Source: a virus
Taxonomy: Duplodnaviria > Caudoviricetes
Direction: 5' to 3' (one strand)
IMG/VR virus record: IMGVR_UViG_3300011989_000257
Span: 128,001 to 192,000 of that record
DNA: 64,000 nt
Below the pieces are notes generated by a model. That model did no database searches and was not told the DNA's origin. It was given only the letters and a program-made list of their open reading frames with translations. Within the stretch, counting starts at the first letter, position 1; the number at the start of each line of letters is the position of its first letter. Both the position numbers and the translations under genes were made by a program. Positions 32,574 to 48,523 of this stretch are shown piece by piece.

Positions 32574-32711
32574 CAAGAACTTTAAATGGTGGGGAGCAAT
32601 CCTCACCATTTTTTGTGTTGTACTTAATTAAGTCGTAGTAAAAAAGATTTACAGAAAAAAGTTGCGAATTTATTTGGTCAATTCAGATAAATTTCGTATC
32701 TTTGCAGTGTA

Positions 32712-32986
32712 AAAGAAATAAGAGGTGTAAGGGCACATTTAACGTAGCGTTTTAGCGTAGTGTCGGTGGTAAGTCCCAAAACACCTTTAGGTAGGATAAA
32801 ACAAACCATAGCGAATGGTAAGGTGAGGGAAGTGTAGGAGCGTTGCAGCCAGAGAGCCACTCTCACGTTGGAATACCAAGATTGGGGAAACCTACCATTT
32901 TGATTGAGAATTTCTGTTCTGAAGTCATATATCGTGTTTTTAGGTGAATATGGATGGGTTGTGTCGTGAGACATGACCCATTTTTT
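32712..32986 (+). ncRNA. Putative structured ncRNA transcription unit
   Basis: Promoter 32673-32706, no credible sense ORF, stems AGGTGT/ACACCT and GGTAGG/CCTACC, and terminator 32954-32986. Confidence 0.65.
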
Positions 32987-33067
32987 GTATTATTATAGAT
33001 TAAAATATAAATGCCCCTACCTTATTCAGATAGGAGCATAGATGTACTTAATTAAGTCCAATGGTGC

Positions 33068-48438: not shown

Positions 48439-48523
48439 TAGGGAAGGTGGGATTCGAACCCAACGAGCCCAGATGGGCATGGCTTTTTAAGAGCCACGTG
48501 TCTACCAGCTGCACCACAACCCC
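48439..48523 (-). tRNA. trnL: tRNA-Leu (anticodon TAA) with imperfect acceptor stem
   Basis: TGGCT-CTTAAAA-AGCCA anticodon arm, long variable arm GCCC-ATCT-GGGC, and TGGG-TTCGAAT-CCCA T-arm. The acceptor GGGGTTG/CTTCCCT has two T-T mismatches. No encoded CCA. Confidence 0.8.

Follow-up and report, generated by a model that had tools for sequence, protein, structure and literature searches.

The small stable RNAs of phage T4 (species 1 and 2; RNA C and D) are co-transcribed with the T4 tRNA cluster. Like them, the RNA described here is phage-encoded, about 100-140 nt long and non-coding, lies in tRNA operons and is presumably cut from a longer transcript. The T4 RNAs, however, are single conserved genes without comparable strain variation, whereas the present RNA combines an invariant junction with an exchangeable arm, and a relation between the two in sequence or structure is not expected. 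Y RNAs and the YrlA-type RNAs of bacteria and phages (partners of Ro60; RF02553), which are recognised by a bulged, Ro60-binding helix in the closing stem and by co-occurrence with a Ro60/TROVE gene, share with it terminal sequences that pair into a closing stem, a conserved set of unpaired nucleotides that would serve protein binding, a second module that varies and the occurrence of several paralogues per genome. In contrast to Y RNAs, it gives no Rfam Y-RNA match at E-values up to 10, carries other junction motifs and has no tRNA-like T arm. Phages of the phi29 type likewise encode an RNA, pRNA, that measures some 120 nt and combines a closing helix with a multi-helix junction and an early promoter, but it is essential, single-copy and assembles into a ring through complementary loops, while the present RNA is dispensable, occurs in zero to two copies and shows no conserved complementarity between loops. 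Aptamers of riboswitches and small ribozymes built on four-way junctions resemble it in that their junction nucleotides do not change and their peripheral stems vary freely; unlike these, it matches no such family and is an independent gene that has a promoter and a U-run of its own and no regulated gene downstream. Finally, RNA anti-CRISPRs are reportedly repeat mimics. They too are small, promoter-driven, accessory and strain-variable phage RNAs that are proposed to be decoys, yet the RNA studied here has no demonstrable similarity to CRISPR repeats and no match to an Rfam CRISPR-DR model; mimicry of Cas13b repeats was set aside, and any resemblance to them would concern only a segment that is not invariant.

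The window, that is, the whole stretch of 64,000 nucleotides that was analysed, runs from position 128001 to position 192000 of a virus record of 412,514 bp that is rated complete and uses the standard genetic code. Two loci within it, copy A at 32790-32896 on the plus strand and copy B at 52116-52202 on the minus strand, had been proposed in a sequence-only reading to share a common scaffold around unrelated cores, and alignment bears this out: the 9-nt A-rich strand, a short hairpin and a 3' block of about 20 nt are identical, while the middles are unrelated. A 19-nt motif of the 3' block is present exactly in both copies, giving two matches in the window where 0.01 would be expected, and a search of the whole 412,514-bp record returned the same two occurrences only. 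Scanning the record for the RNA itself also yields just copies A and B, with covariance-model matches of 98.5 and 74 bits, respectively, each in agreement with the RNAalifold consensus and, for copy A, with the single-sequence fold. The difference in closing-stem length between the copies is indeed compensated: copy A has a 6-bp and copy B a 10-bp stem, and the extra G/C pair is matched on both sides. Both copies lie, as had been claimed, on the transcribed strand behind promoters, with 15-nt cores at 32692 (plus) and 52497 (minus). Neither locus becomes coding when TAG, TGA or TAA is reassigned.

The predicted fold, derived from comparison of the sequences, is a four-way junction in which a closing stem P1 is followed by a 9-nt A-rich strand J1/2, hairpin P2, arm P3, mini-hairpin P4 and a 5-nt strand J4/1, with a U-run after P1; the strand J3/4 between the last two hairpins is about 5 nt long. 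Both window copies have every one of these family features. In copy A (plus strand), P1 pairs 32790-32795 with 32891-32896, J1/2 occupies 32796-32804, P2 32805-32819, the variable arm P3 32820-32869, J3/4 32870-32875, P4 32876-32885 and J4/1 32886-32890. In copy B (minus strand), P1 pairs 52202-52193 with 52125-52116, and J1/2 (52192-52184), P2 (52183-52171), the P3 region (52170-52141), P4 (52140-52131) and J4/1 (52130-52126) follow, with a T-run at 52115-52110 directly behind. Across the family P1, J1/2, P2, P4 and J4/1 are near-invariant and P3 is exchangeable. The junction strands stay identical even where the adjacent small protein diverges strongly, between forms of 41 and of 57-58 amino acids.

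Evidence for the fold comes principally from P1, in which both-sided changes are found in six of seven pairs and 96.8% of cells are paired, a covariation count that is partly due to a register shift in the longer-stem copies. Genuine exchanges are seen as well, the top pair changing from G-C to C-G and a lower one from G-C to A-U; the covariation score was reached by none of 500 shuffles, and controls in which the strands were slid against each other fall to 17-52% paired. When sub-families resembling copy A and copy B were run apart, RNAalifold returned the same P1-P4 for each, with six compensated pairs per sub-family, some of them within the variable arm P3. Since the inner helices are invariant, covariation cannot separate P2 from alternative pairings; in partition-function folding of 38 sequences the mean probability was 0.64 for P2 and 0.38 for P4, as against 0.05 and 0.03 for the rejected pairings of the middle UGG with the 3' CCA and of the 5' CCA with the 3' UGG. 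The P4 stem is kept while its 4-nt loop varies, and one sub-family gains a fourth pair in P4 through an A-to-C change. Self-dimerisation by way of the near-palindromic 10-mer was considered, but the P4 hairpin was preferred to it since only the two central bases of the 10-mer vary and its arms are constant. G-U pairs in P1, P2 and P3 are compatible with the promoter strand only. The folding z-scores of the single copies are modest (-1.9 and -1.7). The proposed non-coding RNA family, fixed in its scaffold and swappable in its core, is supported, as are covariation of the closing stem and invariance of the junction strands.

Within the otherwise identical scaffold, P3 occurs in at least 13 unrelated types, each of which keeps its own pairing, and ranges from a plain 5-bp hairpin in the smallest member of the family (L052 3948-4033, 86 nt in total) to branched arms of about 55 nt. 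The arm types also swap loci: in L059 and L036 the A locus holds a copy-B-type arm, and in G005 the B locus holds one of copy-A type. The layout of a constant scaffold with a variable segment had invited a guide-type interpretation. In a guide RNA of CRISPR, OMEGA or bridge type, the core would be single-stranded and pair with a nucleic-acid target on behalf of a nuclease or recombinase. This reading is highly improbable: the cores are internally paired hairpins with compensatory changes, their best matches to the phage's own genome are 11-13 nt (E at least 0.23) and thus at chance level, and a 22-mer from the core of copy A is missing from 185,579 prokaryote genomes. Moreover, no effector gene is adjacent and the flanking open reading frames contain no nuclease domain. 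A retron RNA (msr/msd) was rejected in turn, as the complete 412,514-bp record gave no match to the reverse transcriptase model RVT_1, with which control genomes did score. Guide-RNA and retron readings are therefore effectively excluded.

Further homologues with covariation, on whose existence the sequence-only reading had staked the family, were found by pattern and covariance-model searches; about 38 are distinct, and all are located in related megaphage contigs or metagenomes, so the family proposal holds on this point. Judged by contig names, their source looks like rumen-type metagenomes and ruminant gut data sets. When viral contigs were scanned by pattern in two rounds, six records proved to hold true homologues, among them two further genomes of about 410 kb. 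The covariance model detects exactly two copies in each of G000, G001 and G003 (the last a 60-kb fragment), a single copy in each of G002, G004, G005 and G006, and none in the complete 295-kb relative G008, where the weak matches are coding sequence. The scaffold pattern was positive in 38 metagenome contigs, in which the covariance model then produced 46 matches, 35 of them true and distinct, and later searches added further variants; matches in L004, L008, L010, L011, L057, L064, L085 and L086 were set aside as coding sequence or chance. The same pattern was not found in 185,579 prokaryote species represented by one genome each, and megablast and blastn gave no match to the RNA among GenBank phages. 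Of the 4227 models of Rfam 15, only tRNA-Leu (48439-48523) passes its gathering threshold in the window; nothing overlaps copy A or B at E-values up to 10, nor the RNA in 15 homologous contigs at E-values up to 1. A search of full-text papers found the motifs unreported. This is a real and previously undescribed RNA gene family of one large-phage clade, with members of 86-117 nt and zero to two copies per genome. All members belong to a single shallow clade, and hence part of the invariance may stem from recent ancestry or gene conversion.

The organisation of the loci is gene-like, the RNA being carried in RNA-only operons that also hold tRNAs and lie behind a consensus promoter. The 15-nt core of this promoter, which we take to contain the Bacteroidota -7 consensus, occurs 36 times in the window, as against zero or one time in shuffled sequences, and recurs in relatives; the occurrences include those at 32692 (plus), 52497 (minus) and 52043 (minus). 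They are spread over about 27 kb (32692-59514), roughly one per kb and nearly all on the minus strand, and this dense block marks many short transcription units with host-type promoters. At the A locus the order is promoter (32692-32706, plus), a tRNA-like element in relatives, module U, the RNA, a tail and a canonical terminator. Module U (32714-32789, plus) is a separate stem-closed RNA module with a core of about 45 nt that is conserved in eight loci, while its outer stem appears, by eye and without a count, to be locus-specific in sequence; it is also present in L007, L006, L038, L034, L039, L037 and L028, often directly preceding the RNA family, and persists where copy A is missing. Downstream of copy A, 32897-32990 holds the U-run, the tail and a canonical intrinsic terminator detected by a terminator scan (32952-32983 and its T-run), with no open reading frame under any reassignment. 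In G006 the A locus is without the RNA.

In relatives, tRNA-like elements that possess a canonical T arm lie in the A-locus operon (L028 3250-3620, which corresponds to the A locus of G006, and L059 785-843), one of which shows a weak match to the tmRNA model (E 0.009). Such neighbours raise the possibility that the RNA is itself a strongly degenerated tRNA-derived cloverleaf that serves as a tRNA mimic or decoy, like the other tRNA-like modules of these operons. The four helices, a P1 that is often 7 bp long and followed by A and a U-rich trailer, a P2 resembling a D arm (4 bp with a 7-nt loop), and the tRNAs and tRNA-like elements in the operons are all in keeping with such an origin. We regard it as very doubtful nevertheless: the RNA is detected neither by ARAGORN nor by the Rfam tRNA model RF00005, the 9-nt J1/2, where tRNA has a 2-nt connector from acceptor to D arm, and the 5-nt J4/1 break the stack of acceptor and T arm, P4 has 3-4 bp with a 4-nt loop instead of the 5 bp and 7-nt loop of a T arm, and the P3 loops do not have anticodon-loop form.

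The B locus follows a different order, in which the promoter (52497-52511, minus, matching the 15-mer consensus) is followed by a gene for a basic protein of 41-58 amino acids, an optional hairpin termed module C, the RNA, an optional promoter, a mini-ORF and a long RNA-only region that contains true tRNAs in some contigs. The protein gene (52273-52449, minus) encodes 58 amino acids and precedes the RNA in most B-locus contexts. Small basic proteins of this kind measure 41-60 amino acids across the family and are found in this phage clade only. The 58-aa protein has no relative in Pfam, PHROG or PDB; its AlphaFold2 model, at a mean pLDDT of 80, combines a helix with a long beta-hairpin and matches no other fold significantly. 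Its exact window sequence occurs in 126 blocks of the assembly index. An obligate partnership of this protein with the RNA was rejected because the gene occurs without it, and the mini-ORF and the long RNA region accompany the gene more constantly than the RNA does. In G002, L075 and L079 the B locus lacks the RNA. The protein therefore remains a weak candidate partner for the protein-binding scaffold or decoy that the sequence-only reading suggested and that the RNA may be.

Seven sampled contigs that encode an identical 58-aa protein display four states at the RNA position, namely three versions of the RNA and one unrelated module, and RNA modules thus appear to be swapped as cassettes. The unrelated module, in L088 at 1745-1840, takes the place of copy B and comprises about 80 nt with a closing stem of 6-7 bp and a U-run. 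Module C (52203-52276, minus), a hairpin closed by a 6-bp stem, had been reported to share a motif with the two copies. The 10-nt motif is there (52257-52266, three matches in the window against 0.24 expected), but membership in the family is not borne out, as the motif is not conserved in orthologues and the module has no covariance-model match; it is a G-rich/C-rich hairpin with only the closing stem in common. Compared with L041, G006 and G001, an interior of about 35 nt in module C is inverted, its reverse complement aligning to their sense strand within an unchanged outer stem, which would reflect either hairpin-mediated DNA inversion or an invertible element. Just 3' of the RNA, a conserved mini-ORF of 7-13 codons (51966-51989, minus) with a purine-rich leader heads the long RNA-only region. 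It ends in Pro-Pro-Pro, sometimes with one more residue, or in Arg-Gly-Arg-Pro before the stop, is also found in L003, L005, L024, L040, L048, L066, L034 and L039, and looks like a ribosome-stalling leader peptide. Positions 50926-52036 (minus) form a unit from promoter to terminator, some 1.1 kb long, in which no genetic code yields an open reading frame and Rfam gives no match; real tRNA genes are present in its homologues in other contigs (L034 1096-1166, L053 2175-2248).

Directly after copy B lies the next consensus promoter (52043-52057, minus, again matching the 15-mer). Stand-alone units consisting of promoter, RNA, U-run and next promoter are found in L052 and L033, tandem copies with differing arms in L066 and L047, and at least four U follow within 8 nt of P1 in nearly all copies. 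The U-run lends itself to the main rival of a trans-acting small RNA, an elaborate intrinsic terminator or 3'-end stabiliser in which P1 and the U-run would end the upstream unit and the remainder would be a tolerated insertion guarding the 3' end. Apart from the regularity of the U-run, this explanation draws on the B locus, where the RNA is the sole terminator-like element ahead of the next promoter, and on L088, where the unrelated module with its own stem and U-run occupies the same position. We consider it unlikely, given that about 30 unpaired junction nucleotides are invariant and unneeded for termination, that copy A possesses its own tail and a separate canonical terminator downstream, that tandem and operon-internal copies require read-through, and that P1 encloses 75-105 nt. 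A closing stem that spans an insert of 80-100 nt makes a poor kinetic terminator.

The position of the RNA between other RNA modules and tRNAs, together with its multi-helix junction, invariant unpaired nucleotides and freely variable peripheral stem, could also befit an RNA that, through self-cleavage or other catalysis, would help to cut multi-module RNA operons apart. Such activity is improbable, however, as no ribozyme family of Rfam 15 matched at E-values up to 10, stand-alone promoter-to-U-run units need no processing, and related operons without the RNA keep the same neighbouring modules. Conservation of this kind, with invariant junction strands and variable outer stems, is equally riboswitch-like, and with the tandem copies it might be read as a free-standing small-molecule aptamer acting as a sponge or sensor, for instance for a host signalling nucleotide. 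There is little to recommend this, since copy A and the stand-alone units have no expression platform or regulated gene, no known aptamer family matched, and the neighbouring genes give no clue to a ligand.

The reading we prefer, tentatively and at somewhat under an even chance, is an accessory small RNA that acts in trans and whose constant core binds a conserved partner. Such an RNA would be made early, from host-type promoters, and its 3' end would be set at P1 and the U-run, either because transcription terminates there or because the RNA is cut from a longer RNA-only transcript. It would then act as a stable particle, presumably a discrete species, and a single conserved partner, in all likelihood a protein, would dock at the invariant junction. 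P3 might be a peripheral stem that is simply tolerated or an arm that confers strain-specific 'specificity'; the plain 5-bp P3 of L052 is explained by a neutral stem no less well than by an arm of the second kind. The module is dispensable, being missing at one locus in G002 and G006 and wholly in the complete 295-kb G008, and is subject to rapid gain, loss and replacement as well as to strand-specific constraint. This patchy, fast-changing distribution suggests an accessory role, and the RNA would play such a part in host takeover or counter-defence rather than in a core phage function. In a more specific version, which we hold to be quite unlikely, the RNA would be a counter-defence or host-takeover tool whose invariant junction recruits or blocks a conserved factor and whose P3, or the whole module, is swapped by recombination through the constant flanks, retargeting or escaping host systems.

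To our knowledge, Bacteroidota of the gut and rumen have very large phages that are still uncultured and whose non-coding RNAs have hardly been explored. The family described here is well defined, with about 55 strongly constrained nucleotides, a clear fold and a set of natural 'mutants' in the form of at least 13 arm types, deletions and replacements, and it is thus a ready substrate for RNA-structure work and for the hunt for partners by pull-down. Should a host or phage factor be bound by the constant core, the two would form a new RNA-protein interface early in infection, and if the arm carries specificity, the family would be a rare case of cassette-like diversification of a structured RNA. 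The counter-defence reading, if true, would make it an RNA analogue of the fast-changing islands of protein anti-defence genes. Beyond this one family, whole promoter-to-terminator operons in these phages are assembled from exchangeable stem-closed RNA modules.
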